Part shown: positions 3,150 through 48,715 of the stretch, piece after piece
Numbering within the stretch: the first letter of the stretch is position 1
Layout of the letters: the number at the start of each line of letters is the position of its first letter
Source of the DNA: Candidatus Iainarchaeum sp.
GTDB lineage: Archaea; Iainarchaeota; Iainarchaeia; Iainarchaeales; UBA10191
Reading direction: 5' to 3'
Assembly (NCBI GenBank): GCA_030649735.1
Contig: JAUSFL010000036.1
Span: forward strand, 79,283 to 143,282
Length of the DNA stretch: 64,000 nt
Program-made: the position numbers and the translations under genes
Notes under the pieces: generated by a model
Seen by the model: only the letters and a program-made list of their open reading frames with translations
What the model was told of the DNA's origin: nothing
The model's database searches: none

Positions 3150-3179
3150 CTATTTTCCAAAACAAGTTCTAAAACAAGC

Positions 3180-3250: not shown

Positions 3251-3309
3251 TTTGAGAAAATAGCAGTAGATTCTTATACTACCTCCAACTTTTTGTTTGC
3301 TGGTTATAG

Positions 3310-4549: not shown

Positions 4550-4599
4550 CCTGCCATTGCTTCGGCAACGGCAGGCTTTCTCTTATTCTCTTTTTTTTT
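4550..4599 (+). terminator. Stable hairpin with UUCG tetraloop followed by T9 run (terminator-like, or 3' end of a small RNA)
   Basis: CCTGCC-A-TTGC-TTCG-GCAA-C-GGCAGG, then CTTTCTCTTATTCTCTTTTTTTTT. It sits in a 320-bp intergenic stretch. Confidence 0.35.
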
Positions 4600-4638
4600 C
4601 CATTCTGCTTAAATATTTCTTCAGCAATAAATGATTCA

Positions 4639-5265: not shown

Positions 5266-5275
5266 GGTTGATTTT

Positions 5276-5767: not shown

Positions 5768-6192
5768 TGCAAATTGGGAAAGACTTTATTGGAGTGAGTT
5801 GCGGAGCGCAAATAATCAATGAGAAAAAGCAGATTTTACTAATGAAAAGAAGCAAAAAATGCAAAAACAAGCCAGGCTATTGGATGAATGCCGGCGGAAA
5901 AGTCGAATTCTTTGAAAAAATAGAAAACGCGGTAAAAAGAGAGGTAATGGAAGAACTCGGCGTTAAAATCAAAATACTGAAATTGCTTCCAGTGCTTGAC
6001 GACATTAAAACAGCAGAAAAACAGCATTGGATAGCCCCGCAATTCCTTTGCAAAATAACAAAAGGCGCTCCGCGAAACAAGGAGCCGGAAAAATGCGAGG
6101 AAATCAAATGGTTTAACTTGGAGAAAATCCCAAAAAAGACAACAAAAACAACAAAAAACGGAGTAAGAGAAATCAAAAAGATAGTGAAATAA
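5764..6192 (+). CDS. Nudix hydrolase with Lys/Thr-rich C-terminal tail
   Basis: Nudix box 'GGKVEFFEKIENAVKREVMEELGV' (GX5EX7REUXEEXGU). Confidence 0.7.
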   Translation: MMQIGKDFIGVSCGAQIINEKKQILLMKRSKKCKNKPGYWMNAGGKVEFFEKIENAVKREVMEELGVKIKILKLLPVLDDIKTAEKQHWIAPQFLCKITKGAPRNKEPEKCEEIKWFNLEKIPKKTTKTTKNGVREIKKIVK

Positions 6193-6656
6193 TGATTATC
6201 CGAAAAGCCAAGCTTGAAAACGCGAGAGAAATAAGCCTGCTCTTATGCAATACAATAAAAACAGTGAATCGCAAGGACTATACTGCCAGGCAAATTAAAG
6301 CATGGTTAACAAGAAACGATTACAAGTCAATCAAAAATAAAATACTAAGCGGAAGAACCATCTTTGTCGCCATTAACAAATCAAAAATTGTCGGCATAAT
6401 CGCCTTATTTCTTAACGAATGCAAAATTGGCGCACTTTATGTCAAACACACCCTGCACAACCAAGGCATAGGCACAAAACTGTTAAATTATGCTGAAAAA
6501 CTGGCCAAAAGAAAAGGCTTGAAAAAGCTAAAGCTAAATTCAACAAAAACTGCTTTTGAATTCTACAAAAGCAAAGGATACAAAAAAATTAGAATGGCAA
6601 GCCATACAACAAATGGCGTCAAAACTCCAACAATACTAATGGTAAAAAATTTATGA
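6192..6656 (+). CDS. GNAT-family N-acetyltransferase
   Basis: Acetyl-CoA-binding motif 'HNQGIGTKLLNYAEKLAKRKG' on a GNAT-like fold. Confidence 0.7.
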   Translation: MIIRKAKLENAREISLLLCNTIKTVNRKDYTARQIKAWLTRNDYKSIKNKILSGRTIFVAINKSKIVGIIALFLNECKIGALYVKHTLHNQGIGTKLLNYAEKLAKRKGLKKLKLNSTKTAFEFYKSKGYKKIRMASHTTNGVKTPTILMVKNL

Positions 6657-6762
6657 ACCAACAAAATAAAGGAGTTGAAATTATGAAAAAAACCTTAGAA
6701 CTGGATCGAATCCAATCTTCCGAAAACCGCAAGCCTCAAACTGCCCACCCAGCAAGCAGAGG

Positions 6763-6776
6763 TCCCGGCGGCTGCA
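6763..6776 (+). repeat. Copy 3 of tRNA-Gly 3'-end motif (TCCCGGCGGCTGCA)
   Basis: 13 of 13 nt match tRNA positions 3238–3250. Upstream there is also 'GGATCGAATCC', which resembles the T-loop, but no acceptor-stem partner exists, so it is not an intact tRNA. Confidence 0.6.
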
Positions 6777-6819
6777 AAAATATTTAAAGCCAGCAAAACT
6801 TGATTCTATTGATGATTAA

Positions 6820-7602
6820 ATGAAAAAAGTATTTGCTTTAATTTTGATAATTATCGGCTTGGCTGCTGCTATTTTTCTTGGTAGTTCGCTGTTTGATAAA
6901 CTTAGTTATTTTTTGATTGCAGTCTTCGGACTATTTTTCATGCTTAAACCAGGAAAACAAGTGCAGATTAACAAAGAAACTGTCACTCCAGAATCAGCCA
7001 ATATTTTATTTAAAGAGCATGATTTTACAGAGAATGAAAAAGAATCATATCGAGAAGCATTGCTTCAGGTCAAGGACATTACAGAAAACCCTTCAAAATG
7101 GGCGGCCTTTATTATTTTTTCAGGAGTACTCTCAATTCCTGTTTTTTTAAGCAAAACCATGTCAACAATCCCTGCATTGCTTGTTTTAAGCATTGCATTT
7201 GTACTCGCTCTTTTCATTAAAGAGCTTAATATTTTTGCTATAAGAGGCAATAAGTTTTACCAGCTTATCGGGGGTTTAGCTTTTGTCTACGTCTTTACAG
7301 GGGCGGGGTTTTTAATTAGCGTTGGCGAGTCTGGCAAAACTTTCATTCCGATAAATTGGATTCAAATTGGATATTATTACTTGTATTTTTTATCATTCCT
7401 CACTTGTATTGCATTAGCAACCATTGGGCTTGTTTACTTCAAGAAAACAAAAAGAAACCTTTACGAAGCATTAGTGTATCGAGAAAACACAACCCTAACC
7501 AGCAGCATCTTATTTGCAAGAGGATATTTGATAGCTATCAACATTTTTTCAATTTTTATGATAGCTTACAATGTAGTGCTTGCAATTTTGTTCATCCAAT
7601 AA
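6820..7602 (+). CDS. Polytopic membrane protein, function unknown
   Basis: There are 6–7 hydrophobic helices. No family recognised. Confidence 0.5.
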   Translation: MKKVFALILIIIGLAAAIFLGSSLFDKLSYFLIAVFGLFFMLKPGKQVQINKETVTPESANILFKEHDFTENEKESYREALLQVKDITENPSKWAAFIIFSGVLSIPVFLSKTMSTIPALLVLSIAFVLALFIKELNIFAIRGNKFYQLIGGLAFVYVFTGAGFLISVGESGKTFIPINWIQIGYYYLYFLSFLTCIALATIGLVYFKKTKRNLYEALVYRENTTLTSSILFARGYLIAINIFSIFMIAYNVVLAILFIQ

Positions 7603-7648
7603 AAAAGAGAATATTTAAATATCTGCAGATAATATTAGGAACTGATAA

Positions 7649-7834
7649 TTGATGACTCTAGAATTTAATAACCCAATATTCCCTGCTTTGGGACTTTTAT
7701 TAATCGTCATTTCAATAATTGACATTTTTATCTCAAGCTCAATGCTTTCATTAGTTGGGGATGCCCTTGGAATTATTGCTGGTTTAGCGCTTATAATAAG
7801 ATACTTTTTAACAAAAAAAGGTGCGAAAAAATGA
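7649..7834 (+). CDS. Small membrane protein (two TM helices)
   Basis: 61-aa hydrophobic ORF whose stop is coupled to the next start. Confidence 0.3.
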   Translation: MMTLEFNNPIFPALGLLLIVISIIDIFISSSMLSLVGDALGIIAGLALIIRYFLTKKGAKK

Positions 7835-8223
7835 AATTGAGTCTTTTGATTATTTTTGGAATAATGTGTCTCGTAACTCTTAGTGGTTGCGCACAAAACC
7901 CCAGTGATACTCCATTAATTGTAAGACAAAACTTTGACAACATTGACTTAAGTAATTTCCAAAACTGCAAAGGCGTTTTTTTAGTACAAGACAGTTATGA
8001 TATCGGACTTGCAGTCTTTGTTGCGGGAGATGTTGCAAAGGGAGAAATAGCCGTTGGGGATAAAACTAATATAGATGGAAATACAATAGTAGTAAAAACC
8101 ATTGAAGGCAATAAGAAACAATGGGATAAAGCCATTAAAACATACCGTGTTGGGCTAAACTTTGAAAGACAAATTACAAAAGAGTCATATAAGCCAAACG
8201 ACCTTATCTGCTTCAACCCTTGA
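7831..8223 (+). CDS. Small secreted lipoprotein
   Basis: Signal peptide plus lipobox 'LVTLSGC'. Confidence 0.5.
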   Translation: MKLSLLIIFGIMCLVTLSGCAQNPSDTPLIVRQNFDNIDLSNFQNCKGVFLVQDSYDIGLAVFVAGDVAKGEIAVGDKTNIDGNTIVVKTIEGNKKQWDKAIKTYRVGLNFERQITKESYKPNDLICFNP

Positions 8224-8244
8224 TTACATTTAAGGAATCTGACA

Positions 8245-8282
8245 GATACTAACCCCAACCTGCTAACACTCGGCGGCTGCAT
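8245..8282 (+). repeat. Copy 4 of the 38-nt repeat ending in tRNA-Gly 3'-end motif
   Basis: AGATACTAACCCCAACCTGCTAACACTCGGCGGCTGCAT. It differs from copy 2 (4319–4357) at 2–3 positions. Confidence 0.7.
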
Positions 8283-15398: not shown

Positions 15399-15884
15399 AT
15401 GGTTCGATTGGAAAGCGAGCTTTGGAAGTTTTCAGAGCTTTGCGAAACCCACAGCATTGAAAAAACCAATGATTTATTGAGCGAAGGCTGGGTTTTGATT
15501 GAAGCCCACGCGCGTGATGGAAAAAAGACATTCCTTTTAGGGAAAGAGAAAATCCATCAGGCCGCAAAACTGGATTTGGACAAGGAAATTGAGGCAGTGC
15601 TTGAAAAGCACGGGAAAAAATACGAGAACTTGGATTTTAACGAAAGCAAAGAAGCAATGGAAGTCAACAGTTCAACAATCAAGTCGTTAATCAAAGGCCC
15701 TGTTTTTTTAGGGCTGGGAATTTACATTTTCTTCCAGTCAGCCCAGAAAAGCCTGCTTCTTTTGGGAAGCGAATCAACTTTGCTGCAGAATGTGCTGTTT
15801 TTTGCGGGCGTGGTTTTAACTCTTGTTGGTTTAATGAATGTTTTAGGATTCATTGCAAAAAAAGAAGGCGGCAAAAATGAATAA
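15399..15884 (+). CDS. Hypothetical protein with soluble N-domain and two C-terminal TM helices
   Basis: ORF with two C-terminal hydrophobic helices. No family recognised. Confidence 0.4.
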   Translation: MVRLESELWKFSELCETHSIEKTNDLLSEGWVLIEAHARDGKKTFLLGKEKIHQAAKLDLDKEIEAVLEKHGKKYENLDFNESKEAMEVNSSTIKSLIKGPVFLGLGIYIFFQSAQKSLLLLGSESTLLQNVLFFAGVVLTLVGLMNVLGFIAKKEGGKNE

Positions 15885-18800
15885 GTCAAGAAAATTCATT
15901 GGAGTGGCCTTGGCTTTTTTTACAATCTTGCTTGCCCAGCTTGTTTTGGCAATTCCAGAGCCGGCAGCTTTGTGGAAGTTTGACGAAAGCTCTGGAAGCA
16001 CTGCCTTTGACACTAAAGGGGCATATAATGGGACTCTTGCAGGCAATGCGTCTTTTGTGGCTGGAAAGTTTGGCAATGCCGCAAGCTTTGACGGAACAAA
16101 CTCTTACATTACTGTAGGAACAGGCAAGTTTGGAATAACCACTGAATTTTCAATGGCTTACTGGATTTTCCTAAAAGGCTCTACTGGAACAAGCCAGGCA
16201 ATAATTGCAAGAAGCGCTTTCACAAGGCCTTTTGTGGCAAACTTGGAAAGCAACTTGAGGCAAAGGTTTGGAGTGAGGACTTCAACAACAAGCTATCTTA
16301 CCGCGACTTCAGCAATTCCATTAAGCCAATGGGTTCACGTTGCATTGACTTTCAAAAGCGGGGAAAGAATAGTTTACATTAACGGCCAGCCAATCACAAC
16401 CGATGCTTGGATTGGAAGCCTGAATTGGGTTTCAGACAATGAAATCACTGTAATTGGAATGAATCCCGGCTCGCCTTACAGCAATCCATTAAACGCAAAC
16501 TTGGATGACTTAAGAGTTTACAATACTGCATTAAGCGCTGCCGAAGTGCAGGAATTGTATTCTGGAATAGTGCAGCCTCCAACATGCACTTTGCCGCAAA
16601 TTCTTTGCGGAGCGAACTGCATTACTCCAGCATGCACTTCAAGCGCGCAGTGCAATGACTCAAACCCAAACACAACAGACACATGCAACAACGCAGGAAC
16701 TTGCACAGCAAACTGCACCCACACTCCAATAACTCCTCCCAGCACAGTTTATGTGGGCGGCGCAGAAGTGAACACTGAGTATGACACTTATGTCACTCCG
16801 CAATGCCTTAGCATTTTAAACACTAAAAGAATTTTAATGGCTGGAAAATCAAACCAGCATTACATGTTCATTGGAACAAGAAGGTTTGATTCTGGAATGG
16901 CAATTGATGAAGGCCCGCAGAATGTTCCTGGCCTGACTAATTATGGGTATGAGCCGTACAATGGCGAAAACATTCCCGCAAACATTTTTTCAGGAATATC
17001 GGGCCAAAAGACAGTGTATTACAGTGTTATAGACTCTTCAAACAGGTATGCTGAATTCAACGCGTTTTTCAGGAACATTCCTTTCAGTGGCAACGGTTAT
17101 ACTTACACTTACAATTTCAGCGATGATGGCGTGGATGCTGCAATGATGGATCCAAGGCTTTGGAGCACGCCGGAAATTTTATACAGTTCATACACAAGCA
17201 CTTTTGACGCTCTTCAAGCAGACTTTCCAGCAATAAAATTCATTTATTTTACGCACATTTATTATGGAAATGACCAGACTTTGCAAGGAATCCCGGAAGC
17301 CTACAATAATATGATTTATCAAAACAAGCTTGGGCAAGTTCCAATTTTTGACTGGGGAGACATTGTTTCAACACAGCAAAGCATTGGGGGAACCACTTGC
17401 ACCAGGCAATTGAACAATCCATTGGCAGCCTGGAATAATTCAGCATGCGTTTGCAAATACACTGACGGTTACAGGCACGGGTGCTCTGGCTATGACGGAA
17501 CTCATTATTCAGATCCTGCAATGGAAGACAGAATGGGCAAAGCATACCTTTTGATGCTCGCAAAATTGTTTTGTACTGCACCGCCAGCAAACAATCCCCC
17601 GATTCTTTCAGCCATTGGAAACAAGACAGTGACTGCTGGCCAGCAATTGCAGTTCACAGTAAGCGCCACTGACCCTGAAAGCAATCCATTGACTTATTCA
17701 GCCAGCAATTTGCCGAGCGGGGCAACTTTTAATTCATCAACAAGGGCATTCTCTTGGACTCCGACAACAACTCAAGCCGGCACTTACAGCAATGTCAATT
17801 TTTCAGTTAGTGATGGGCAGGCAAGCGATTCAGAAGCAATAACCATTACAGTCAATTCCGAAACGCCGCCAACAGGAGAGCAAATTTTCATTTCACAATC
17901 CGGGACTGGAACAGGCGCTTCCTGCTCAAGTCCAAGAAATGCCGCATGGTTCAATACTGCAGCCAATTGGGGAACTGGAGCGGGAAAAATCAGCGCTGGA
18001 GACACAGTGCACTTGTGCGGAGCCATTAATTTCCAGCCATTGCAGGGCGGCTTGAGAATTTACGGCAGCGGGACTGCTGGAAACCCAATAACAGTTTATT
18101 TCGAACCTAACGCAAAATTGAGCGCTCCAGTTTTTGGCGGAGATTACGGAGACAGTTCAGGAGGCGCAATTGACACTAGAAACAACAATTACTTGATAAT
18201 TGATGGCGGAACCAATGGAATCATTGAAAGCACTGACACTGGAATGGTCGGGTATTTCACATATTACAGGCAAAGCTCGACAAATTACAACATTCCGGCA
18301 AACATTGGCGTTGCAATAGGCTATTCAAACAATGTTGAAGTAAAAAACTTGAACATTAATAATTTGTTCCAGTCTATTGGAACAGAACCTTGCGGCTGCG
18401 GCTACACTGACAGAATGGGCGCTGTTGGAAAAAACACTGGGGCAGCGGCATTCAGGTTTTCAAACGCAACCAACATCAAAATTCACCACAACACAGTCAC
18501 AATGGCTGGAATTGGAATTGGCGCGGGAATTTACGGAAACGCAAACATTGAAATTTACAACAATGTATTCCGCAAGATTGGGGCAGCAACTCACATTGGA
18601 GTAAGCGGTGCAACTGCAGAAAAAACTCTTGACATTCATGACAATAGAATTGAAGACACTACTGACTGGGGATATAATGACGGGCTGAAAATTTTCGGAG
18701 ACATGATTCCTTTCAGCGGAATAAAAATCCACAATAACACCATAGGCCCTAACATGAGCAGGACAGGGCATCCTTCAACAGCATGGGTTTTGATTTCTGA

Positions 18801-19686
18801 CGGCTGGTTTACAGCGCCAGAAATTTACAACAACATTTTCCTAGTGGGGCCGGAAGATGGACTGACCAGTGGAATGACATATATCCTAAATCTTACTGCC
18901 TACCATGACACCGCCGGCGATCACGGCTATGCAATGAATTCAAAAGTTTACAATAACACAGTGATTTCTGAAAACACTAATGCATCTTACGGAATTACTT
19001 TTGCAGCATTCAGCACGGCAAGCTCTGGCCACAGGGTTTACAACAATGTGTTCAAAACAAAAGGAATGATGGGCACTTACTTATTCAATAATGGCGCCAC
19101 AATGGAAGAGTCAGGAAACAATGTCTTCTACAGTGCTGCGGGATTGCTTCGCTCAGACTTGAGGTATGTCGGGCCGACAGACAGGATTTTGACTGCAGAG
19201 CCGGCTTTAGGGACAGATTACAGGCCGACAGCAGGAAGCAGCCTAATTAACGCGGGCAGAAATCTTGGAGCAGGATATTACAACTTTGATTATGCAGGAA
19301 CTAACCGAAATTCTTACGCTCCATGGGACATTGGCGCTTTTGAGTATTACTCTGGACAGCCCCCAATTTGCACTCCTTCATGGTCTTGCACTGCCTGGTC
19401 TCCAACAGCCTGTCCTCAAAGCCAAACGCAAACACGAACTTGCACTGACTCACAAGACTGCGGAACAACTTCAGGCAAGCCCGCAGAAACACAAACTTGC
19501 ATTTACATTCCGCCAATAACCTGCTTTGACTTGACTGGCGATTCTAAAGTCGATGTTTTTGACCTGGTTTTTGTAAGCCTGCGCTTGGGAAATCCTGCAA
19601 GCGACCCTGCGGATGTCTTTGGAAACGACGGAGTCAACATTCAAGACCTGCAGGCAGTCGCTGGACAGTTAGGGCAGAATTGCTGA
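15877..19686 (+). CDS. Giant secreted surface protein: LamG_3/ConA-like lectin domain – Cys-rich region – dystroglycan-type cadherin-like domain – right-handed parallel beta-helix (PbH1 repeats) – C-terminal dockerin-like module
   Basis: Signal peptide 'MNKSRKFIGVALAFFTILLA'. LamG_3 pattern: 'GTLAGNASFVAGKFGNAASFDGTNSYITV…WVHVALTF…RIVYINGQP'. Cadherin-like: 'PPILSAIGNKTVTAGQQLQFTVSATDPESNPLTYSASNLPSGATFNS…FSWTPT'. Beta-helix: many 'hNNtV/IYNN' repeats. C-terminal module 'C…DLTGDSKVDVFDLVFV…GNDGVNIQDLQAVA…C' resembles the dockerin duplicated Ca-binding segment. Confidence 0.7.
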   Translation: MNKSRKFIGVALAFFTILLAQLVLAIPEPAALWKFDESSGSTAFDTKGAYNGTLAGNASFVAGKFGNAASFDGTNSYITVGTGKFGITTEFSMAYWIFLKGSTGTSQAIIARSAFTRPFVANLESNLRQRFGVRTSTTSYLTATSAIPLSQWVHVALTFKSGERIVYINGQPITTDAWIGSLNWVSDNEITVIGMNPGSPYSNPLNANLDDLRVYNTALSAAEVQELYSGIVQPPTCTLPQILCGANCITPACTSSAQCNDSNPNTTDTCNNAGTCTANCTHTPITPPSTVYVGGAEVNTEYDTYVTPQCLSILNTKRILMAGKSNQHYMFIGTRRFDSGMAIDEGPQNVPGLTNYGYEPYNGENIPANIFSGISGQKTVYYSVIDSSNRYAEFNAFFRNIPFSGNGYTYTYNFSDDGVDAAMMDPRLWSTPEILYSSYTSTFDALQADFPAIKFIYFTHIYYGNDQTLQGIPEAYNNMIYQNKLGQVPIFDWGDIVSTQQSIGGTTCTRQLNNPLAAWNNSACVCKYTDGYRHGCSGYDGTHYSDPAMEDRMGKAYLLMLAKLFCTAPPANNPPILSAIGNKTVTAGQQLQFTVSATDPESNPLTYSASNLPSGATFNSSTRAFSWTPTTTQAGTYSNVNFSVSDGQASDSEAITITVNSETPPTGEQIFISQSGTGTGASCSSPRNAAWFNTAANWGTGAGKISAGDTVHLCGAINFQPLQGGLRIYGSGTAGNPITVYFEPNAKLSAPVFGGDYGDSSGGAIDTRNNNYLIIDGGTNGIIESTDTGMVGYFTYYRQSSTNYNIPANIGVAIGYSNNVEVKNLNINNLFQSIGTEPCGCGYTDRMGAVGKNTGAAAFRFSNATNIKIHHNTVTMAGIGIGAGIYGNANIEIYNNVFRKIGAATHIGVSGATAEKTLDIHDNRIEDTTDWGYNDGLKIFGDMIPFSGIKIHNNTIGPNMSRTGHPSTAWVLISDGWFTAPEIYNNIFLVGPEDGLTSGMTYILNLTAYHDTAGDHGYAMNSKVYNNTVISENTNASYGITFAAFSTASSGHRVYNNVFKTKGMMGTYLFNNGATMEESGNNVFYSAAGLLRSDLRYVGPTDRILTAEPALGTDYRPTAGSSLINAGRNLGAGYYNFDYAGTNRNSYAPWDIGAFEYYSGQPPICTPSWSCTAWSPTACPQSQTQTRTCTDSQDCGTTSGKPAETQTCIYIPPITCFDLTGDSKVDVFDLVFVSLRLGNPASDPADVFGNDGVNIQDLQAVAGQLGQNC

Positions 19687-39514: not shown

Positions 39515-39542
39515 GCAGCCGCAGCATTTACAAGAAAATAAC

Positions 39543-40337
39543 TCAGTTGCTTCTTTCCCTGAATGATTTGGAAAGTCTGGGAGAAGAGCCAAGCGCAAGA
39601 GCCTGCCTTTGCAATTCTGCCTTCAATTCAAGGCTTGCGCTTTCCAAAGCAATTAAAAAAAGCGATTTCTGCTCTGGCCTGTTAAAGGTTATTGAATTAA
39701 TCCTGTCAATCAATTCAAGCGCGCACTCGTTTGCTGGCAATTTTCCGAATTTGACGAGCAAGTCAAAATCCAATGGAATGACTCCTTTCTTTGCATCAGT
39801 GAATGGCTCTATAAGGTCTGGGGCAGGATAATAGCCAGCATTTGCTGTCTTAGTCAATTCAAAAATTGCTTGCCTTCTTGCGCCCGGATCAGTAATCCTA
39901 AAATGGCTTTTTGAGGAAAGCTTTGAGCCTTTTGAAACCGAACCGAACAATTGAGAAACCTTCACCCATTTTCCTGCAAAAGGCCCTTTCGCAACCTGAA
40001 ACATTGAAGACTTTGGAACTCTCACTCCGGCCTTGCGCAATTCAGCAATTACCTGCTGGGTTTTAATTGCGGTTTCATCATCCATTGGTTTTTTGAAAAC
40101 CTTGATTGCAACAGCGTAAGACTTTCCGTTCTTGAACCGCATTCTTCCGGCATAAACATCGCCATACTGTGTTTCAGGATGGCCAATCCTGACAAGATGC
40201 TTGTCTTTGCCCCTTGAAAATGAAAGCCTTTTCACGTCAATTAGAGTCTTCCACGACTGTTTTGCTGCAGGCGCTTTCGCTTCTGGCTTTTTTCGGGAAA
40301 AAAGTTTTCCAACCCAAGCAGGCTTTTTCCAAGGCAT
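39543..40337 (-). CDS. Hypothetical protein with weak protein-kinase-like N-lobe motifs
   Basis: 'GDVYAGRMRFKNGKSYAVAIKVFKK' is a Gly-rich loop plus a VAIK-like lysine, and 'PLDFDLL' is DFG-like. The catalytic loop is not recognisable. Confidence 0.35.
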   Translation of the reverse strand: MPWKKPAWVGKLFSRKKPEAKAPAAKQSWKTLIDVKRLSFSRGKDKHLVRIGHPETQYGDVYAGRMRFKNGKSYAVAIKVFKKPMDDETAIKTQQVIAELRKAGVRVPKSSMFQVAKGPFAGKWVKVSQLFGSVSKGSKLSSKSHFRITDPGARRQAIFELTKTANAGYYPAPDLIEPFTDAKKGVIPLDFDLLVKFGKLPANECALELIDRINSITFNRPEQKSLFLIALESASLELKAELQRQALALGSSPRLSKSFRERSN

Positions 40338-40431
40338 AAGATAAAATTGGTTTCGAAGTTTTTAAAACCAAGAGCCCAAAGGCCGCAAAGAGTTTAAAGG
40401 TTTAAATAGTAAAAAGGACTTTCTAGAAAGA

Positions 40432-41169
40432 ATGAGGAAATTTTTCATTGCATTGCTTTTGCTCTTGATTGCAGGCGCGGCCTCGGCGCAAGAATGCCGC
40501 AATGATGTTTCGCAGGCAAATGAATTGATTTTTGAAATAAAAATCGACAGTCAAGGAAATGCAATCTCTAATGAAATCTTGACAATTCCATTCTCTGAAG
40601 AATGCCTTGTTGAAAAAGGCCTGCAAAGGCTGAATGAAAGCAAGGCAGTCTGCAGCGACATTATGGAGTCATTCGGGGAATTGAACCAGGAATTCATGCT
40701 TGCAAGCAATTGCACAATAGGCTTTGACAGCAATGAACTGAAAGTTTATTTTTCATCAAAAGGCGCAAATGTAGTGAGAGTGCAGGATGGAAAGCTCACC
40801 GCAGTCTTTGGCGAAATCAGCATTCGCGGATTGAACCCCCAAGCAGACACTACTTTGCGCGTTTCTTTGCCCGAAGGATTTGAGCTATTGGATTACTCCC
40901 CAAAAGAGCGCAGCATTGCGACTTCATCACAGGTTTTCTGGATGAAAATCCCAAAAGAGCCAATTTCAATCCAGTACAATGCGGCAGATAATGGCAGCCA
41001 GCAGTCATTGATTGTTTTGGCAATTGCAATAATAATCGCAATTGCGATTCTCGCGTTTGGGCTGCTTTTCAAGAAACGAAGCGATTTTTTGAAAAAAAAG
41101 CACTTGGAAAAAAGCAAAATGCAGCACGGAAAGCTTGAAGAATTAAAGGCGCCGCGCGCGAAAAAATAG
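40432..41169 (+). CDS. Surface-anchored protein (signal peptide, ~190-aa extracellular domain, C-terminal TM)
   Basis: 'MRKFFIALLLLLIAGAASA' signal peptide and the C-terminal TM 'LIVLAIAIIIAIAILAFGLLF'. Confidence 0.45.
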   Translation: MRKFFIALLLLLIAGAASAQECRNDVSQANELIFEIKIDSQGNAISNEILTIPFSEECLVEKGLQRLNESKAVCSDIMESFGELNQEFMLASNCTIGFDSNELKVYFSSKGANVVRVQDGKLTAVFGEISIRGLNPQADTTLRVSLPEGFELLDYSPKERSIATSSQVFWMKIPKEPISIQYNAADNGSQQSLIVLAIAIIIAIAILAFGLLFKKRSDFLKKKHLEKSKMQHGKLEELKAPRAKK

Positions 41170-41177
41170 CGCTCGAA

Positions 41178-41219
41178 AAATCACGCCTTGCAAAGCTGGT
41201 TGAACACTTTCACAAAATC
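41178..41219. repeat. Duplicated copy of the ksgA 3' end (last ~14 codons + stop), direct repeat partner of 45232..45273
   Basis: AAATCACGCCTTGCAAAGCTGGTTGAACACTTTCACAAAATC versus AAATCAGGCATTGCAAAGCTGGTTGAACACTTTCACGAACTC at 45232–45273. On the minus strand this copy still reads …VKVFNQLCKA*. Confidence 0.75.
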
Positions 41220-41332
41220 AGCGCATGAAATAGAATCATTTTCAAAGTTTTTGAAAAGTGGGAGCCTTTGAGATTTTTAAACGCAGGTCGTGAAAGTTAG
41301 TTTTTTATAATCATAAACTCTGAGAACATATT

Positions 41333-44300
41333 ATGCGTTCTCAAATTCTCTTGATTTTAGCGCTCTTGCTTTCATTAAGCTTTGCAAGTGCTCTGCTGCT
41401 TGATGAAAAGCCTGGCGCAATAGCTGCCTACAGCCTTCGAAAGCTTTCCTCAACTTACGCTGGCCCTGCAATTGAAGTGCAAAGAGCATCTGACAATCAA
41501 ACTCTGGCCATTGGGTTTGATTTTGACGGGCTTTTGGATGCGTCTGCAATTTTGTCATTCTGCACTTCTAAAAGCAGTGCTGACAGTTTATATGTGAAAA
41601 CTTGGAATTCTCAAATTTCCGGAGTTCCTGCATTTTCAGAAACCAACATTAACAAAATGCCGCTCATTTGCGAAAACGGCCAAGTGACAAAAGACCAAGA
41701 CGGTTATCTGGCAATAAAATTCATGCGCAGCATGGATGGGCCATTCAGCGCTACAGGTTTAACACAATACAATGCTAGAAACGTGGACGTTTTCGTGGTT
41801 GAGGATGTAATAAATCCGGATAATTCTGGGGGCATTCTTTTTACGCTTGCACCAATTGGAACTGAAGCTGATGATTTTCCATTCATGAAGTTTGGTTCTG
41901 GGGGAGAATCACTCTCTTATGGGGGCGGATCCAATAGCATGAGATACGCGAATACTACAACAGACCGCGCTGTGCTTGGCTTGCAAGTAACTTCGGCAAA
42001 ATTTTCAGTTTATGTAAACCAGATATTAAAGCACTCAACAAGCAAGGCAATGATTGAATTGAATTCATCAAGCATTTCAATAGGCGCGGAAACAAAAAGC
42101 CCTTCTGCAAATTCAGGCATTGATGCATACGTCAGCGAGTTTTTGGTTTACCCGCAAAGCTCGCTTTCTCCAGAAGCACGTAGGCAAGTCATTGCAAACA
42201 TTAATGGCTTTTGGAAGGCGGGGCCTTCAAGCTGGAATGAAGGAGCATTATTGCCACAGACTTACGAATACCAAGTGGAATTGTACAATTGGCTCAAAAC
42301 CAACACTGTAAATAACACCAGCATTCCTGCTGGTTTAAAACCGGCTTGGAATGGTTATTTTGAGAATGAAAATCAACTGGCTTCATTATGGGTTGACATG
42401 ATGCAGTCTGGCGACTCCAAAAGAGTCGTAACCACAGGCATGATGTATGAGCCTGGCTGGTTCACGCTTAATGATGGCACAGGAAAAGGCATTGAAGCAA
42501 CTGGGCAAGTGAGAGTTCCTGATGAATATACTGCCGGCTATAATTATCATTTGAGTCGCAGTACTGCCTTTTGGTACCCGTTTCATATTCCATTGGCAGG
42601 CGGTGGTGAAGGAAACCCTTACTATCATAATGAGGCAATAGCCAGGAGAGCGCTTACAATTGCAATCGTCAACATGATGATGGTTGATGGCTTGTTTGAT
42701 TCAAATGGCAACACTTACACAAGGCATACTTATTACAGTGGCTGGCCACTGGACATTGCCGACACTTACAGCCTGGCTGGGGATTTTCTTCCTGAAAATG
42801 CGCAAAAGGCTTTTGAAAGGGGATTGCTGCGCTTGATAAGGCATCAATCAATTGTTGCAACTGGCGGCAGTTTTGCTAACATGGAAAGCAAGGGAATAGC
42901 AGGCGGCGCCAAAGCTTGTGTTAGCGCCAAGCATTATAAAAAAGAAATGTGCGATGCCGCATTGGCTGCAGTAAAGAAAGTATTGTTTGGCTTAAGCAAT
43001 GGCTCTCCAACTAATTTCAATACCATCGGAGGCTGGTATCCTGAAGGCAGCATGCGTGAAGCTGAAGGCCCTGAAACCACTTACAACAATCGCGCTTTGG
43101 ACCATATTGCTGACGCGCGGGCAGTAACTTACGGCGTGGAAGGAATTGGAGACTGGTCATTCCTTGACACAGTGATGGAGAGAAATACTGATTTCATTTC
43201 TTACCAAGGATTTACTGAACCCGGGGGAAGCGAAATCACGGACGGCCCTTCAGGCTATGCAGCACGAACTCCAGGCACTGCAATCAGCGGCGCACAAGGA
43301 ACAGCGCACATGAAGTATACTTTGGCATCACTTTACCCTCAAGGGCAATTTTATTTAAGAGAAGTAGCCAGCCGCTTCATAAATAATTCAGAACTTGTTT
43401 CAAGCGTGAAAACTTCACTAAATAATGTTTCGGCTTCTTCAGTAATTACAACAGTGCCGCCAGTTTTTATGAGAGATGCTGCAGGTAAGGAAGCTGGATG
43501 GGCTCCTTGGCCTTCACGCCTGCCTTATCAGCCCCCAAAGGCAAATTGGCTTTCTTATTTAAGGTCGCTTGTCTTGGAGGACAAAAGCACAACTTATACA
43601 TTGCCGCACCCAAGCAGGGGAGAAACTTATGTCAAGACTCTTCCAGCAGCTTCAGAAACTTGGGGTCCGCAATTCCTTGCCGCAAGGCAATGCCCTTCAA
43701 TCGGCAATTGCTGGGCAGGCTTTGTTGAAGCAACAAGCTGGAATGGCGAATGGGGTGGAGCACACAGCGGCAAGCTTGAAACATTCTGGAGCGAACGCGT
43801 TGGAATTGTTCTATTGAACAGGCGAACCGAGAGTGGGTTTTTTGACCAGACAAAATTAGTGGCTGAAGGAATTTGGGGCAAGGATGACAAAACCACTCCA
43901 ACGATTTTCAATTTCATGGCTGACAATGGCTGCGTCAATTGCGCCAGCAAAAGAATTATTGCCTGGGATTCTGGCTCCAAAAGCATTAGCATTCCAAGCA
44001 AAATAGTTTCCAGAGGCATGCAGAACAATAATGAAATCACAGGCAGTTATTCGCATAATAGGACTTTTCAAGTTTTGCCTGATGGCATGCGGGCAACTAC
44101 TGTCTTGACTTACACTGGCTCTGATCAAATAAAGGAATTATGGTATCAGCTTCCCTTTTATGTCAAAGGCATTTCCAAAATGTATTATTGGGCTAATGAT
44201 TCATGGAATCTTGCAAGCCCAAATGTTTTATTCAATGCGAGAAAAATTCGCTGGGCAAGAGATTATAATGACAGTCACGGCGAGAGGTTTGCATGGATTG

Positions 44301-45229
44301 AATTCAACAATAATTACAACATGATTTTAGGAAATGACTTTTCACAAGACGGTACTTTCAGAGTGCTCAAAATAGACTTGCACGGCAATCCTGGAACAGC
44401 ACGGGCAATTCCAGCAAGCCAAACTTTTATTTACACTATTTCAGTCACTGAAAACGGCGTTCCCCCCCAAAGCCCAAATAGCGCTCCACTGGCAGCAAAT
44501 GATTCTTACACTGTCGAGAAAGATAAAACTTTAACAGTCCAAGCGCCGGGAGTCCTTGCCAATGACACTGACGCTGATGGTGATGCGCTTACTCCCTGGC
44601 TTGTCAGTAATCCAGGACATGCTAAAGGTTTTAGGATGAGGTCTGATGGTAAGGGGTATTTCTACTACACTCCAGAAACTGGCTTTGTAGGAACAGACTC
44701 TTTCACTTACAAGGCCAATGACGGCATTGCCGGTTCAAAATTGACAACAGTGACCATTACTGTGACAGGCACGCCAACCACAAACCAACCGCCAGTCCTT
44801 TCAACCATAGGCCCAAAAACAGTGGTTGATGGAAACAGGCTTTCCTTCAATCTTTCAGCAACAGACCCTAACGGTGGCACTCTAATTTATTCTGCACAAG
44901 GACTGCCTGCCGGCGCAATCATTACATCAGCTGGCGCTTTCACTTGGATTCCAAGTTCCAGCGCTGTTGGAATTCACTCAGTGAATTTTATTGTGAGTGA
45001 TGGCAGTCTCACTGATTCAGAACAAGTCAGCATTACTGTAAATTCATCAAGCACGCCTAATGAATGCTTTGACTTGACTGGCGACTTGAAGGTTGACTTG
45101 TTTGACTTGGTGTTTGTTGCTTTAAGGATTGGCCAGCCTGCAGGAAATCCAGCAGACGTGATCGGAAATGACGGAGTCAACTTGCAAGACTTGCAGGAAA
45201 TTGCGAAAAAACAGTTTTCGACTTGCTAG
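41333..45229 (+). CDS. Giant secreted surface protein: large N-terminal region of unknown fold – bacterial cadherin-like (DxDxDG) domain – dystroglycan-type cadherin-like domain – C-terminal dockerin-like module
   Basis: Signal peptide 'MRSQILLILALLLSLSFASA'. Cadherin-like: 'VLANDTDADGDALTPWLVSNPGHAKG…FYYTPETGFVGTDSFTYKANDG'. Dystroglycan-type: 'PPVLSTIGPKTVVDGNRLSFNLSATDPNGGTLIYSAQGLPAGA'. The C-terminal 54 aa are ~60% identical to the C-terminus of 15877..19686. Confidence 0.7.
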   Translation: MRSQILLILALLLSLSFASALLLDEKPGAIAAYSLRKLSSTYAGPAIEVQRASDNQTLAIGFDFDGLLDASAILSFCTSKSSADSLYVKTWNSQISGVPAFSETNINKMPLICENGQVTKDQDGYLAIKFMRSMDGPFSATGLTQYNARNVDVFVVEDVINPDNSGGILFTLAPIGTEADDFPFMKFGSGGESLSYGGGSNSMRYANTTTDRAVLGLQVTSAKFSVYVNQILKHSTSKAMIELNSSSISIGAETKSPSANSGIDAYVSEFLVYPQSSLSPEARRQVIANINGFWKAGPSSWNEGALLPQTYEYQVELYNWLKTNTVNNTSIPAGLKPAWNGYFENENQLASLWVDMMQSGDSKRVVTTGMMYEPGWFTLNDGTGKGIEATGQVRVPDEYTAGYNYHLSRSTAFWYPFHIPLAGGGEGNPYYHNEAIARRALTIAIVNMMMVDGLFDSNGNTYTRHTYYSGWPLDIADTYSLAGDFLPENAQKAFERGLLRLIRHQSIVATGGSFANMESKGIAGGAKACVSAKHYKKEMCDAALAAVKKVLFGLSNGSPTNFNTIGGWYPEGSMREAEGPETTYNNRALDHIADARAVTYGVEGIGDWSFLDTVMERNTDFISYQGFTEPGGSEITDGPSGYAARTPGTAISGAQGTAHMKYTLASLYPQGQFYLREVASRFINNSELVSSVKTSLNNVSASSVITTVPPVFMRDAAGKEAGWAPWPSRLPYQPPKANWLSYLRSLVLEDKSTTYTLPHPSRGETYVKTLPAASETWGPQFLAARQCPSIGNCWAGFVEATSWNGEWGGAHSGKLETFWSERVGIVLLNRRTESGFFDQTKLVAEGIWGKDDKTTPTIFNFMADNGCVNCASKRIIAWDSGSKSISIPSKIVSRGMQNNNEITGSYSHNRTFQVLPDGMRATTVLTYTGSDQIKELWYQLPFYVKGISKMYYWANDSWNLASPNVLFNARKIRWARDYNDSHGERFAWIEFNNNYNMILGNDFSQDGTFRVLKIDLHGNPGTARAIPASQTFIYTISVTENGVPPQSPNSAPLAANDSYTVEKDKTLTVQAPGVLANDTDADGDALTPWLVSNPGHAKGFRMRSDGKGYFYYTPETGFVGTDSFTYKANDGIAGSKLTTVTITVTGTPTTNQPPVLSTIGPKTVVDGNRLSFNLSATDPNGGTLIYSAQGLPAGAIITSAGAFTWIPSSSAVGIHSVNFIVSDGSLTDSEQVSITVNSSSTPNECFDLTGDLKVDLFDLVFVALRIGQPAGNPADVIGNDGVNLQDLQEIAKKQFSTC

Positions 45230-45231
45230 AC

Positions 45232-45273
45232 AAATCAGGCATTGCAAAGCTGGTTGAACACTTTCACGAACTC
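45232..45273. repeat. Native ksgA 3' end; direct-repeat partner of 41178..41219
   Basis: Sequence comparison with 41178–41219 (see that entry). Confidence 0.75.
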
Positions 45274-46062
45274 TTCAACTTCAATCAAGTAGACTTTTAC
45301 TCCTGCAAGCTCTGAGCTTTCCAAAAAATCTTCAAGCGCTTTGTTTGGAGTGCGCAGTTTTGCCTTGACCCAGTCTTCAGTGTAATTCAGCGCATTGCCC
45401 AGGTTTTTGTTCTTGTAACGGAACAATTGCTCGACAAACTGCTCGAACAGCAAATCATTTTCCGCAATTCCGTGCTTTTTGCTCTTTTCAAGCCCAATTA
45501 TTTGCGATGTTGTTTTAGGCTGCGGGAAAAAAGCGTCTGAAGGCACTTCGCCAATAATGGTTGTTTCAAAAAAATACTGCGTCAAGACTGCTGTCGCGCA
45601 ATAGTCCCTGAACCCAGGCAAGGAAGTGATTTTTTCAACAAAGGCCTTTTCAAAAAGCAATACTCCGGATTCAAAATCAAGCTTGAACAAGGAATGCATT
45701 ATGTCAGAAGAAATATTGTAGGGCGGAGAGCTCACTATTTTTGAAAATTCTGGAAGCTCTGCCTTCAAAAAGTCCTGCTTGAAAAGCCGAAAGTTTTTTG
45801 CTGCAATTTCTGCTTCAAGGACTTTTTGCAATATCTCATCAGTTTCAAAGCCGACAACGCTGCAATGTTTTAAAATTTCCCTTGTGAGAAAGCCAGTGCC
45901 GCAGCCGATTTCCAAAACAATGTCCTTGTCTTTCAATTCCGCGGCCAAAACAATTCTTTCAATGAATTGCCTTGAGACTAGAAAGTTTTGCGAAAGCTTC
46001 TTGCTTGGCTTGAACCTGTATTTTTGCATTAAAAGCTGCAATTCCTCAAACAAGTCCTTCAT
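45235..46062 (-). CDS. ksgA: 16S rRNA (adenine1518/1519-N6)-dimethyltransferase KsgA/Dim1
   Basis: 'LSQNFLVSRQFIERIV…VLEIGCGTGFLTREIL' and 'IVSSPPYNISSDIM'. Confidence 0.85.
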   Translation of the reverse strand: MKDLFEELQLLMQKYRFKPSKKLSQNFLVSRQFIERIVLAAELKDKDIVLEIGCGTGFLTREILKHCSVVGFETDEILQKVLEAEIAAKNFRLFKQDFLKAELPEFSKIVSSPPYNISSDIMHSLFKLDFESGVLLFEKAFVEKITSLPGFRDYCATAVLTQYFFETTIIGEVPSDAFFPQPKTTSQIIGLEKSKKHGIAENDLLFEQFVEQLFRYKNKNLGNALNYTEDWVKAKLRTPNKALEDFLESSELAGVKVYLIEVEEFVKVFNQLCNA

Positions 46063-46385
46063 TAAAAAACCGTTATTTAATTAGGCAAGGGCAGTTTTTA
46101 AAAAAGCCTGTTGCGTTAAAGAATACCATGCGCGCAAGAAAAGGCTGGCAGAGAATCATAAGCCCGGACTTAAGAATCAAAAGCATTACTCCCTGGGGCA
46201 GTGGAAAGGAAAAGAAAAGCCACACTTTAATGCCTGGAGAGCTTGCGACAGCAAAATTGCACAGGCAATTCACTCTGCCTGACAGGCAAGGCCAGTCGCC
46301 GCTGCCCTTGACTTCAACAAGAAGCATTCTTGCAAGGCTTGGCGTTGAAGTCCACAATTCCCAAGGCAGGATTCCTGAAACTCTC

Positions 46386-46943
46386 ATGCAGGGAAAAACT
46401 CCAAGCGAAGTCATGCTATTGCATCACGGCGAAGTTCCTGTAAAAATGCGCCGCGGAAACAGGATTACCAGAATGTACTTTCCGCAATTGACAAAGCCTT
46501 TAAGGCACGCTGAAATCCAAAAAATGAGAAAGTCCGGAGAACTGGTTTTAGGAAAAGACTGCAAGGTCCATTCTAACGGGCTTGTGGAAATCCGCGTCAT
46601 TCCAGTAGTTTATGAAATTCCACCAGATGCAAAAAAGCTCCTTGCGAAAGAAAACTGGCTTACTGGAAGCAAAAGGAACGCATTCATGCAATTGCTCAAG
46701 AGAGTGAAAAAGCCAGTCAGGATTCACTCAAACCACATTATATTGACTGAAACTCTTCCAGTAAAATTGCCTAAAGATGTCGCAATGTTTTTTCAAAGGA
46801 CAACTGACGGAAGCAGCGTCCACATTCAATCGCACTTGATAGACCCTGGATTTAAGGGCCCAATTGCAATGGAATTGCTTGGCTTTCATGAAAAAAAATC
46901 AAGGCCGGACACAGTGCTCGCATGGCTTTGCAGGGCAGAGTGA
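46386..46943 (+). CDS. dCTP deaminase/dUTPase-superfamily protein
   Basis: 'RTTDGSSVHIQSHLIDPGFKGPIAMELLGF' matches the dCTP deaminase 'SSLGRLGL…IDPGFRG…LEL' signature. The track ORF starts at 46128, but the first 86 codons have non-protein-like composition, so the start is placed at the Met 'MQGKTPSEV'. The choice is uncertain. Confidence 0.5.
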   Translation: MQGKTPSEVMLLHHGEVPVKMRRGNRITRMYFPQLTKPLRHAEIQKMRKSGELVLGKDCKVHSNGLVEIRVIPVVYEIPPDAKKLLAKENWLTGSKRNAFMQLLKRVKKPVRIHSNHIILTETLPVKLPKDVAMFFQRTTDGSSVHIQSHLIDPGFKGPIAMELLGFHEKKSRPDTVLAWLCRAE

Positions 46944-46948
46944 AATAA

Positions 46949-48715
46949 ATGCCAAAAGTTGTTCTTTTTGACTTTTCAGAACAGCCAAGCCTTGGGCTTG
47001 CCTCATTGCAGCATTCTCTCCAAGAGAAAGGAATTTCCTGCCTGATTGTGAATCTTTATGCAAAAGAAGAGTTTGACTTCAAGGCAAGGGTTGAAAGCGC
47101 GCTTAAAGCAATAATGAAAAACCGCGAGGCAATTAAGGAAGCAAAATACCTTGGGATGCCATTTTTCAGGCAGGATTTTGAAATCCGCGCGCGAATGCCA
47201 ATAGCAAAAGGCCTGAAAGCCAGGTTTCCTGAAAAGATTTTGATCGGAGGCGGAGTAGGCCTCATTTCAAACCCGCGCGGATTTTTCAGGAAGGGAATGC
47301 TTGACTATGCATTGATTGGAGAGGCAGAGAAAACATTGCCTCAGCTAATTATTGCGCTTGAAGAAAGGCGTAGCGCGCAAGAAATTGAAAAAATTCCTGG
47401 AATCATAATGAAAAAAGGAAGCAGGATTTTTGTTTCAAAAACTTCAGGCAGGCTTTCACAAACAGAGCTTGAGAAAATGCCCTTGCTTTCTTCATTACTT
47501 GGAAAAAGAGCAATTGTGTTTACCGAGCGGGGCTGTCCTTTCAAATGCATTTTCTGCTCATGCCCTAATGTTGGCAGTGTAAGGTACATGAGCGAAGACA
47601 GGATTATTCAAGGATTAAAGGAACTCGCCCAGAATAAAAAAATCACTTTAGTCCAATTCCAGAACGACCAATTCCTTGCAAACAGGCAAAGGGCGCTTTC
47701 ACTGGTCAGGCGGCTTTCAAGCGAAGGATTAAACAAAAGATTCAAGTTTGGAATGATGACTTCAGTGGACTTATTCTACAGGAAAGGAGTCATTGACGCT
47801 GAACTAATTCAAGCATTAAAGAAAGCAAGATTTGGGGAAATCGCGCTGGGAGTCGAGGCATTCAATGACAACATCCTAAAAGAAATAAAGCATGGAAGAT
47901 ATACTGCAATCCAGGCTTCAAGGCTTATTAAAGAGCTTTCAAGGAATGGATTCCACACAGATTTATTGACCATTGCGGCAAGCATTAAAACAAAACCTTC
48001 AGAATTCGCCCAATCAATTTACACAATGGCTGCATTGTCCGCAAGGAGAAGAGCAAGCGTTGTTTCTCCAGGAATGATTCATGCGACTCCAGACATGCCA
48101 GTCTTTAAGACTGCCGCAAGGGAAGGAGTGCTTTACGGCCTTAATGGAAAAAAAGCAAACGAAAGCACTGCAAGAAAGAATTTGAAAAATTATTACGCAC
48201 TGCCAAAAGATGAACGATTAAGGGAATTATTCATTAGGATTTTGAAAAAGAAAAGGATTGACGGCTTTATCACAAGCGGAAAAGACCTGGCTGACTTGCG
48301 AAAATTTGTTGAAGAGAACGCGCCAGAATATTCAGAAAAATTCAAGAGGCTTGAAGGATTAATGAGGGCCAATGCGCTTGACCGCAAGGTGAAAGACGTA
48401 GTGCTTAAGGCAAGCGTTCGCGGGCTCATGCGGGAAAAGACAGGCGCTGAAAAGTCAGGCAGCAAAGACGTGGAAAAATTCTACGGAAGCCTTCCACTTG
48501 GGAAAAGAAAGGCGCTTATCAGGGGCGCTGTTGATTTTGTTGAGGATTACAGGAAAGTGCAGGGAAGAATTGCAAGAATTGACGGCAGGAGCGAAAAGCT
48601 TTCGCAAGGGCAAGGCCTGAAAAGACTGCGAATGATTCAAAAGGCCAGAAGCAAGTTCGGCATTTCTCCAATTTCAGGATTTAACGCAATTTGGAGAAGA
48701 AGGCTTCCAAAATAA
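46949..48715 (+). CDS. B12-binding-domain radical SAM protein with long basic C-terminal extension
   Basis: N-terminal cobalamin-binding-like domain, then the radical SAM cluster motif 'CPFKCIFCSC'. The C-terminal ~150 aa are basic. Confidence 0.6.
   Translation: MPKVVLFDFSEQPSLGLASLQHSLQEKGISCLIVNLYAKEEFDFKARVESALKAIMKNREAIKEAKYLGMPFFRQDFEIRARMPIAKGLKARFPEKILIGGGVGLISNPRGFFRKGMLDYALIGEAEKTLPQLIIALEERRSAQEIEKIPGIIMKKGSRIFVSKTSGRLSQTELEKMPLLSSLLGKRAIVFTERGCPFKCIFCSCPNVGSVRYMSEDRIIQGLKELAQNKKITLVQFQNDQFLANRQRALSLVRRLSSEGLNKRFKFGMMTSVDLFYRKGVIDAELIQALKKARFGEIALGVEAFNDNILKEIKHGRYTAIQASRLIKELSRNGFHTDLLTIAASIKTKPSEFAQSIYTMAALSARRRASVVSPGMIHATPDMPVFKTAAREGVLYGLNGKKANESTARKNLKNYYALPKDERLRELFIRILKKKRIDGFITSGKDLADLRKFVEENAPEYSEKFKRLEGLMRANALDRKVKDVVLKASVRGLMREKTGAEKSGSKDVEKFYGSLPLGKRKALIRGAVDFVEDYRKVQGRIARIDGRSEKLSQGQGLKRLRMIQKARSKFGISPISGFNAIWRRRLPK

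Follow-up and report, generated by a model that had tools for sequence, protein, structure and literature searches.

A single-gene insertion between two copies of the ksgA 3' end in a Candidatus Iainarchaeum contig

The DNA analysed here, referred to as the window, is a stretch of 64,000 nucleotides (nt) from Candidatus Iainarchaeum sp. (assembly GCA_030649735.1, contig JAUSFL010000036.1, positions 79,283 to 143,282). Within it the 3' end of ksgA, the gene for the 16S rRNA adenine dimethyltransferase, is found twice, once at either side of a 4-kb insertion that carries one gene for a secreted protein of 1298 amino acids (aa). The window is ordinary chromosome, with genes for L1, L10, L11, Spt5, FtsZ, TBP, AglB and a protein of the aIF-2B family. 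The features of the locus are given below; the two copies of the ksgA end are denoted A and B, and the 1298-aa gene is called the cargo.

40432-41169, plus strand: gene for a 245-aa protein with a signal peptide and a transmembrane (TM) anchor; it is convergent to ksgA, was its ancestral neighbour and borders the insertion on the left.
41171-41219, minus strand: copy A, the orphan ksgA tail, with 12 codons and TGA at 41181-41219 and about 10 nt of the old spacer between ksgA and the 245-aa gene; now non-coding.
41188-41213, no strand assigned: segment of 26 nt that is identical in both copies (partner at 45242-45267; 2 matches, 0 expected); all 6 differences between A and B lie outside it.
41220-41332, plus strand: upstream region of 113 nt that arrived with the cargo; its A/T-rich stretch TTTTTTATAAT (41301-41311) resembles a TATA box and stands some 27 nt ahead of the ATG.
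41333-45229, plus strand: the cargo gene, encoding the 1298-aa secreted protein.
45225-45273, minus strand: copy B, the live ksgA 3' end, with 12 codons and TGA at 45235-45273 and a short spacer, whose bases 45225-45229 are shared with the final codon and stop of the cargo.
45235-46062, minus strand: ksgA/rsmA, 16S rRNA adenine dimethyltransferase, intact, 275 aa (PF00398, E 6.5e-44).

A repeat search recovered copies A and B as a single pair of direct repeats, 49 nt long, identical at 43 of 49 positions and spaced 4054 nt from start to start. A duplicated ksgA 3' end at this place had been claimed earlier from the sequence alone, and both direct reading and the repeat search bear this out; the count of four mismatches in 42 nt given then is right for 41178-41219, the repeat now being slightly longer. 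On the minus strand, copy A reads ...DFVKVFNQLCKA before its stop, and in copy B the 275-aa RrnaAD/KsgA open reading frame (ORF) finishes as ...EFVKVFNQLCNA and a stop; the live tail thus ends in CNA and the orphan tail in CKA. The stretch that the two copies share reaches about 10 nt past the ksgA stop. However, the first five nt of this extension (GCTAG) also form part of the end of the 1298-aa ORF (final codon and stop), and their match may be due to chance. The 26-nt core, TTGCAAAGCTGGTTGAACACTTTCAC, occurs only twice in the window, even when 3 mismatches are allowed, with no match expected by chance (100 shuffles). Nor is the repeat a widespread motif: apart from these two copies there were 0 matches to the core in the IMG/VR and JGI metagenome contigs, and none of 8 related loci has a second ksgA tail. 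Beyond copy A there is no further likeness to ksgA, the codons upstream of it (KNFENDSISCA) being unrelated to that gene, and the right flanks of the two copies do not align. No tRNA or Rfam family was matched at the repeats, and they fold no better than shuffled sequences (z-scores +0.3 and +1.0).

A duplication that would also cover the last four codons of the 245-aa gene was considered and rejected. It would have rested on a match at 11 of 12 positions between GCGAAAAAATAG (41158-41169) and GCGAAAAAACAG (45203-45214), with p ~0.03. This match is 9 nt off the register of the main repeat (a 9-nt indel), and GCGAAAAAACAG belongs to the final part of the 1298-aa ORF. The match is probably due to chance or to microhomology at the junction, because the cargo tail, ...IAKKQFSTC before the stop, aligns residue for residue with the tail of a 1277-aa paralog, ...VAGQLGQNC. 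The closest relative found, locus L002, carries GCAAAAAAGCAG where the window has GCGAAAAAATAG.

The target gene itself is undamaged. The RrnaAD domain spans the full length of ksgA, and the product aligns with its L002 ortholog over the full length and gap-free. It is 100% identical to NCBI MDO8647788.1, and the 1298-aa product is identical to MDO8647787.1, from a 160-kb contig of a Candidatus Diapherotrites metagenome-assembled genome (MAG). The gene order TBP-L21e-Rpb4-DUF655-(DCD-like)-ksgA is kept in L001, L007, L010, L011 and L013.

Relatives were found by means of the KsgA protein, and the contigs of the related loci were then compared with the window. In L002, whose ksgA is 87% identical in amino acids and ~83% in nucleotides, ksgA (1558-2385) is separated by a 2-nt gap from a convergent ortholog of the 245-aa gene (2388-3278; 296 aa, 47% identity, same signal peptide), beyond which lies the counterpart of the window's 264-aa gene, also an ortholog. 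The single tail of L002 (2344-2388) aligns by blastn to both 45276-45232 and 41222-41178 of the window, and copy A is collinear with the L002 junction between the ksgA end and the 296-aa gene, L002 2344-2469 corresponding to window 41222-41091. A member of the 245-aa family also abuts ksgA in L007 (313 aa; ksgA 59% identical) and L011 (301 aa; 56%), and the spacing between the two genes in these three loci is 2-8 nt; KsgA of L001 is 59% identical. The sequence-only reading had proposed to look for relatives in which ksgA abuts the 40432-41169 gene with no insertion, and L002 is such a relative. By its distribution the adjacency of ksgA and a 245-aa-family gene is ancestral for the sub-clade, and since the site is empty in L002 and the same adjacency is found in L007 and L011, the insertion of the 1298-aa gene is specific to the lineage of the window. 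The 245-aa protein of the window is 51 residues shorter than its L002 ortholog, the difference lying in the Lys-rich tail after the TM segment; both proteins end in ...KLEELKAP.AKK.

Alternatively, the repeat-flanked arrangement may be old and the empty sites secondary, the cargo having been lost by deletion between the repeats in L002 and others. Recombination of A with B would yield exactly the L002 arrangement, and L002 has another deletion nearby, where only ~47 codons of a radical-SAM gene are left. However, independent precise losses in L002, L007 and L011 would be needed, or else a very old insertion, whereas copy A has kept an open frame and its stop with no change at first or second codon positions, and no cargo homolog above 33% identity was found anywhere. 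I consider this sequence of events very unlikely, and it bears on timing only, as an insertion at the junction of ksgA and the 245-aa gene is still needed. As the source is a MAG, the contig could also be chimeric at one of the junctions. The two copies differ at 6 of 49 positions, though, and 26 identical bases are too short to mislead an assembler; at both junctions the gene order is coherent, the ORFs are intact and the composition does not change from one side to the other, which makes an assembly artefact hardly credible.

The insert consists of 4,005 unique bases (41220-45224), made up of 113 nt and one ORF of 1298 codons, with no room for another gene. The cargo stop lies within 5 nt of copy B, and the boundaries of the insertion are defined to about 5 nt. 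Neither the related loci nor other parts of the window have anything significantly similar to the 113-nt region; by comparison with archaeal promoter architecture it may have a promoter role. The cargo has a GC content of 0.449 and 0.403 at third codon positions (GC3), both within one standard deviation of the genes of the window, and its synonymous codon fit is 1.5 standard deviations low. No inverted ends were found, nor Cas1 in the insert, nor a tRNA in or at it. Target duplications of known prokaryotic transposons are 2-15 nt long, and with a duplication of 42-49 nt, no inverted ends and neither transposase nor Cas1, I rejected a transposon, insertion sequence or casposon as the source. 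An integron-type gene cassette was rejected as well, as the repeats show no attC-like structure (see the z-scores above) and there is no integrase nearby.

The differences between the copies are informative about their history. In ksgA orientation they are at positions 3, 6, 33, 36, 43 and 46, none of them inside the 26-nt core, and all four that fall in codons are at third positions (GAT/GAG, TTT/TTC, AAG/AAT and GCG/GCC). If the copies had been born identical, with A decaying neutrally and B under selection, the probability of an identical run of at least 26 nt would be 0.05 and that of four third positions out of four 0.03, or 2.5e-4 jointly. This pattern favours two pre-existing ksgA tails that recombined over a fresh duplication. 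In the codons flanking the core, 4 of 5 third positions differ between A and B, compared to 32% (89/276) between the window and L002 over the whole of ksgA, which suggests that one of the two tails came from a more distant allele. Copy A has TTT and Lys in common with L002 (CKE before the stop), and copy B has TTC and Asn in common with the more distant L001 and L003 (CNA and CNR before the stop). Both copies have GTG and CAGCTT where L002 has ATC and CAACTC, and are closer to each other than to L002.

That last likeness is what would be expected of a fresh target duplication, in which a staggered double-strand break or replication template switching was followed by fill-in that doubled ~45 nt, with later divergence and possibly conversion of the core. 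Such an event would also be in keeping with an insert that has no recombinase and no genes of an att-bearing element (att, attachment site), and with a doubled stretch that takes in a few bases of the old intergenic spacer besides the ksgA tail. It leaves unexplained why all four coding differences are at third positions though copy A no longer codes, and why all six differences lie outside the central 26 nt, the joint probability of 2.5e-4 under random decay rising to only ~0.03 with core conversion. There are, in addition, no inverted ends, and the repeat length is far above that of the known transposon duplications. Overall I regard a fresh duplication as somewhat unlikely.

The account that I prefer, at a probability of roughly 0.5, is an att-like insertion in which two pre-existing tails recombined within the core. 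A piece of DNA of 4.0 kb, with one gene and its own promoter, would have inserted into the last 13-14 codons of ksgA in a Diapherotrites (DPANN) lineage. It would have brought along its own short copy of the ksgA 3' end, ~40-49 nt from a diverged allele, and the two copies would then never have been identical. The crossover between this imported patch and the chromosomal ksgA tail would have taken place inside the identical 26-nt stretch, with the geometry of an attP x attB integration of a small circular molecule (Campbell-type). The ksgA frame would have stayed complete, now ending in partly imported codons (...CNA), and the displaced tail (...CKA) would have been left beside its old neighbour, the 245-aa gene, with the cargo between the direct repeats. 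The enzyme presumably acted in trans; it could have been an integrase of the host or of a lost element, or host homologous recombination acting on the short patch. Alternatively to catalysis in trans, the element may have decayed to its cargo. A Xer/dif-type (IMEX-like) capture was considered as well. Archaeal att sites measure 29-69 bp with a median of 45, and elements are documented to integrate in the 3'-distal part of protein-coding genes and to supply the sequence that reconstitutes the ORF (PMC6563490). As in a site-specific element, direct repeats bound the insert, the site is empty in a relative, and the target is intact with its end derived from the insert-proximal repeat.

Several observations weigh against an att-like insertion. 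None of the genes of mobile elements, such as one for an integrase or a transposase, is present in the insert, and a domain scan of ~55 ORFs across the window turned up neither of these two enzymes. The insert is filled by a single ORF, unlike the known archaeal integrated elements. The host-like GC and GC3 of the cargo, and C-terminal modules that it has in common with another gene of the window (see below), argue against a foreign element that arrived recently. There is no sign of recurrent targeting of ksgA, since the core is absent from the IMG/VR and JGI contigs and a second tail from the 8 related loci; neither att nor target was seen to recur in other genomes, episomes or viruses covered by these sets. 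The probability test given above rests on six differences and was framed post hoc, after the data had been seen; a fresh duplication with later gene conversion of the core would account for the way in which the differences cluster; and polarising them with L002 as outgroup is not decisive. The sequence-only reading had taken the locus for a site-specific integration that regenerates the ksgA end. The insertion that split and rebuilt the 3' end of ksgA stands, but site specificity does not follow, given the missing integrase, and the label of site-specific integration is no stronger than plausible.

A different origin of the new ksgA end has to be considered in view of what surrounds it. The convergent interval between ksgA and the AMP phosphorylase gene was delimited as follows.

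Window 39515-45234; L001 10781-11973; L004 1313-1378; L011 7756-8674; L013 10823-10824: convergent interval between ksgA and the AMP phosphorylase gene.

In L004 and L013 ksgA directly abuts AMP phosphorylase, and in L001 two unrelated small genes lie between them; the number of genes is 0 in L004 and L013, 1 in L011, 2 in L001, at least 2 in L002 and 3 in the window. Judged by gene content, the interval is a hot spot of gene turnover in the phylum. As this content differs in every lineage examined (0 to 3 genes), a donor with the cargo beside ksgA is plausible, and a linear fragment from a related Diapherotrites, with the 1298-aa gene already convergent to ksgA, could have entered by one-sided homologous recombination (homology-facilitated illegitimate recombination, or 'displacement'). 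It would have been anchored over a long part of ksgA, its other end being joined illegitimately 42 nt inside the recipient tail and the old tail being pushed downstream. A displacement model with orphaned 3' regions has been described for type VI secretion system (T6SS) and Rhs loci (PMC5361080), and the host-like composition and native C-terminal modules of the cargo would fit a donor of the same lineage. However, no mosaic structure was seen in ksgA in the comparison with the relatives: its body is clearly nearest to L002 in every 30-codon window (0.75-0.94 identical) through at least codon 270, the last window scored, and the imported part would therefore be limited to the tail, a short patch and not a long anchor. 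A long imported anchor is thus not visible, though a donor closer than L002 would escape this test, and no genome with the cargo beside ksgA was found in the databases searched. I consider this explanation unlikely.

The att-like insertion that I favour has partial counterparts among described systems. In staphylococci, staphylococcal cassette chromosome (SCC) elements sit at the 3' end of rlmH (orfX) and use ccr serine recombinases and 15-bp repeats. The ksgA insertion resembles these in that it, too, lies at the 3' end of a gene for an rRNA methyltransferase without disrupting it, and that direct repeats bound the insert, but the domain of life and the enzyme are different, SCC elements having ccr recombinases and their shorter repeats. 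Closer to home are the archaeal integrated mobile genetic elements in the 3'-distal part of protein-coding genes, such as the thaumarchaeal NitEve-E2 and crenarchaeal elements with att sites of 29-69 bp (PMC6563490). These have in common with the ksgA insert direct repeats of att length (42-49 nt here), the 3' end of a housekeeping gene as target, an ORF rebuilt with partly different codons supplied by the insert, and an empty site in a relative. In contrast to them, the insert holds no integrase, replication, virion or conjugation gene but a single 4-kb gene of cellular type, and ksgA as a target, as well as this att sequence, was not found in any other genome or viral contig searched. Integrase-less islands with att-like repeats, decayed or mobilisable in cis, likewise have repeat-flanked cargo without a recombinase of its own, so that any mobility would have to come in trans; the microcin H47 island (PMC3191183) is an example. 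Islands of that type are bacterial and have known relatives that carry an integrase, whereas the ksgA insert has no known parent element. In homology-facilitated illegitimate recombination at T6SS effector-immunity arrays and at orphan ends of Rhs and contact-dependent inhibition (CDI) loci (PMC5361080), a new 3' end also comes from incoming DNA and the old end remains downstream as an orphan, but there a gene is anchored by its own long, conserved 5' region and its variable 3' part is the payload, whereas at ksgA the replacement covers only ~13 codons and a separate gene, convergent to ksgA, serves as payload. Casposons at the 3' end of EF-2 (PMC6563490, PMC4046053) are also insertions at the end of an archaeal housekeeping gene with a flanking duplication; their terminal inverted repeats, Cas1, PolB and duplications of 14-15 bp have no equivalent at the ksgA insert.

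The cargo protein starts with a signal peptide, followed by an N-terminal beta-sandwich and by an (alpha/alpha)-toroid plus beta-sandwich with a polysaccharide-lyase-like fold (residues ~30-1040 altogether). Its C-terminal part, the last ~250 residues, consists of a Big_9/cadherin-like domain (1049-1145), a He_PIG immunoglobulin-like (Ig) domain (1153-1237) and a 57-aa module resembling calcium-binding ones that ends in Cys. Pfam matches were limited to Big_9, Cadherin-like and He_PIG, and no family was matched at the sequence level (Pfam, PDB sequences) over residues ~30-1040. An AlphaFold (AF2) model, with a predicted local distance difference test score (pLDDT) of 74.8, has the N-terminal beta-sandwich, the alpha-helical toroid and the beta-sandwich, and a Foldseek search of the PDB with this model recovered xanthan, alginate, chondroitin AC and PL33 lyases (E 1e-8 to 1e-6, template modelling score 0.3-0.5, 10-12% identity), and GH54 for the N-terminal domain. 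The model thus points to a protein with a polysaccharide-lyase-like fold, which is predicted to be enzyme-like.

In the databases searched, homologs of residues ~30-1040 are only 27-33% identical, with none above 33%, and those that are named are bacterial (Rhodocaloribacter, Lentisphaerae and a gammaproteobacterium). Apart from a weak match of the N-terminus to PF09206, Pfam offers no model for the family. Five loci with a homolog were compared.

L005 8001-11744; L006 2621-6424; L014 464-4171; L015 8001-11933; L016 5904-9836: homologs of the cargo gene.

All five lie in recurring bacterial clusters of polysaccharide type, although two of the five are short contigs with only part of the set. 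The neighbours of the homologs among these loci include genes for GT2, a sulfotransferase, an ADH/GFO fusion, heparinase II/III, GT4s, a UDP-GlcNAc-2-epimerase-like protein, PqqD and Asn synthase, and in L015 proteins with tails of the type IX secretion system (T9SS). A search for a link to plasmids gave only generic Ig-domain matches.

The C-terminal modules have nearer relatives. Parts of the 1277-aa ORF at 15853-19686 match the cargo with 67% identity over the 57-aa module and 43% over the He_PIG domain. The best Pfam match of the 57-aa module is Dockerin_1 (PF00404), at 15.6 bits in the cargo and 14.9 bits in the 1277-aa paralog, against a threshold of 22.9; the earlier description of the protein as dockerin-like corresponds to no more than this match below threshold. 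The dockerin-like ends of the 1277-aa and 1298-aa proteins are 67% identical in amino acids and ~72-81% in nucleotides. Three secreted-protein genes of the window (15853-19686, 3310-4314 and 41333-45229) have the He_PIG Ig domain in common, and all three of their products have a Cys directly before the stop (...QNC, ...GTC and ...STC), which suggests a common signal for C-terminal processing or anchoring. Taken together, these similarities make the cargo appear a chimera, with a distantly bacterial, enzyme-like body (the first ~1040 residues, ~31% identity) and surface modules native to this genome. From the native modules of this chimera I would argue for an earlier residence of the gene in this or a related archaeal lineage, before it landed at ksgA. 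The gene had earlier been called acquired cargo. This holds for its acquisition at the ksgA locus but not for foreignness, as GC and GC3 are host-like and the last ~150 residues are native modules, and with regard to origin only the first ~1040 residues look bacterial, and distantly at that.

Elsewhere in the window, a scan for repeats showed a second pair of direct repeats, at 4324-4357 and 8249-8282, with ~4-kb spacing like that of the ksgA pair. These repeats are 34 nt long and identical at 32 of 34 positions (CTAACCCCAACC[C/T]GCTAA[A/C]ACTCGGCGGCTGCAT), and the first copy begins 10 nt past the stop of the gene for a 334-aa He_PIG secreted protein. The repeat has two copies in the window and no match in the JGI or IMG/VR contigs, Rfam or tRNA. 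The segment between the copies (4358-8248; 3.9 kb with the repeats) holds six small ORFs, namely NYN, 163 aa, NUDIX, GNAT, 260 aa and 130 aa, and the four of these that were measured have the lowest GC content in the window, 0.33-0.38 compared to a mean of 0.42. No integrase was found in this segment, and none of the relatives compared covers the 4324-8282 part of the window. One could speculate that Diapherotrites move single genes or small sets of genes as integrase-less cassettes, captured at short patches by a recombinase encoded elsewhere, with the ksgA insert and 4324-8282 as products. I hold this to be quite unlikely; if true, it would be no coincidence that a genome so compact has a pair of these structures within 64 kb.

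On the other side of ksgA, the window, L002, L001 and L007 have a 271-aa dCTP-deaminase-like gene (46128-46943 in the window) that separates ksgA from DUF655, and DUF655 directly abuts ksgA in L010-L013. In the window, DUF655 and the DCD-like gene are in turn separated by a gene for a B12-binding radical SAM protein (588 aa, 46949-48715). L001, L003, L007 and L010-L013 lack this gene there, and L002 retains only its first ~47 codons (419-700), after a deletion of ~1.6 kb. No flanking repeats were found around the radical-SAM gene, nor around the pair of the 264-aa and 245-aa genes.

The insertion at ksgA is confirmed, and the evidence settles its mechanism in part. Protein-coding genes with an att-like scar at the 3' end are of a known kind, and the present one is notable mainly because a DPANN genome here has an insert of one gene and no integrase. 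With a recombinase that acts in trans, the locus would provide a defined attB/attP pair for an uncultivated lineage; otherwise it is an ordinary scar of acquisition. DPANN archaea have tiny, tightly packed genomes, in which gene gain is poorly documented at the level of single events. The ksgA locus is a cleanly resolved event of this sort, with junctions placed to a few bases and an empty site in related genomes, in which the gene for a large secreted, predicted enzyme-like protein was placed between convergent genes only 2-11 bases apart, and neither of them was damaged.

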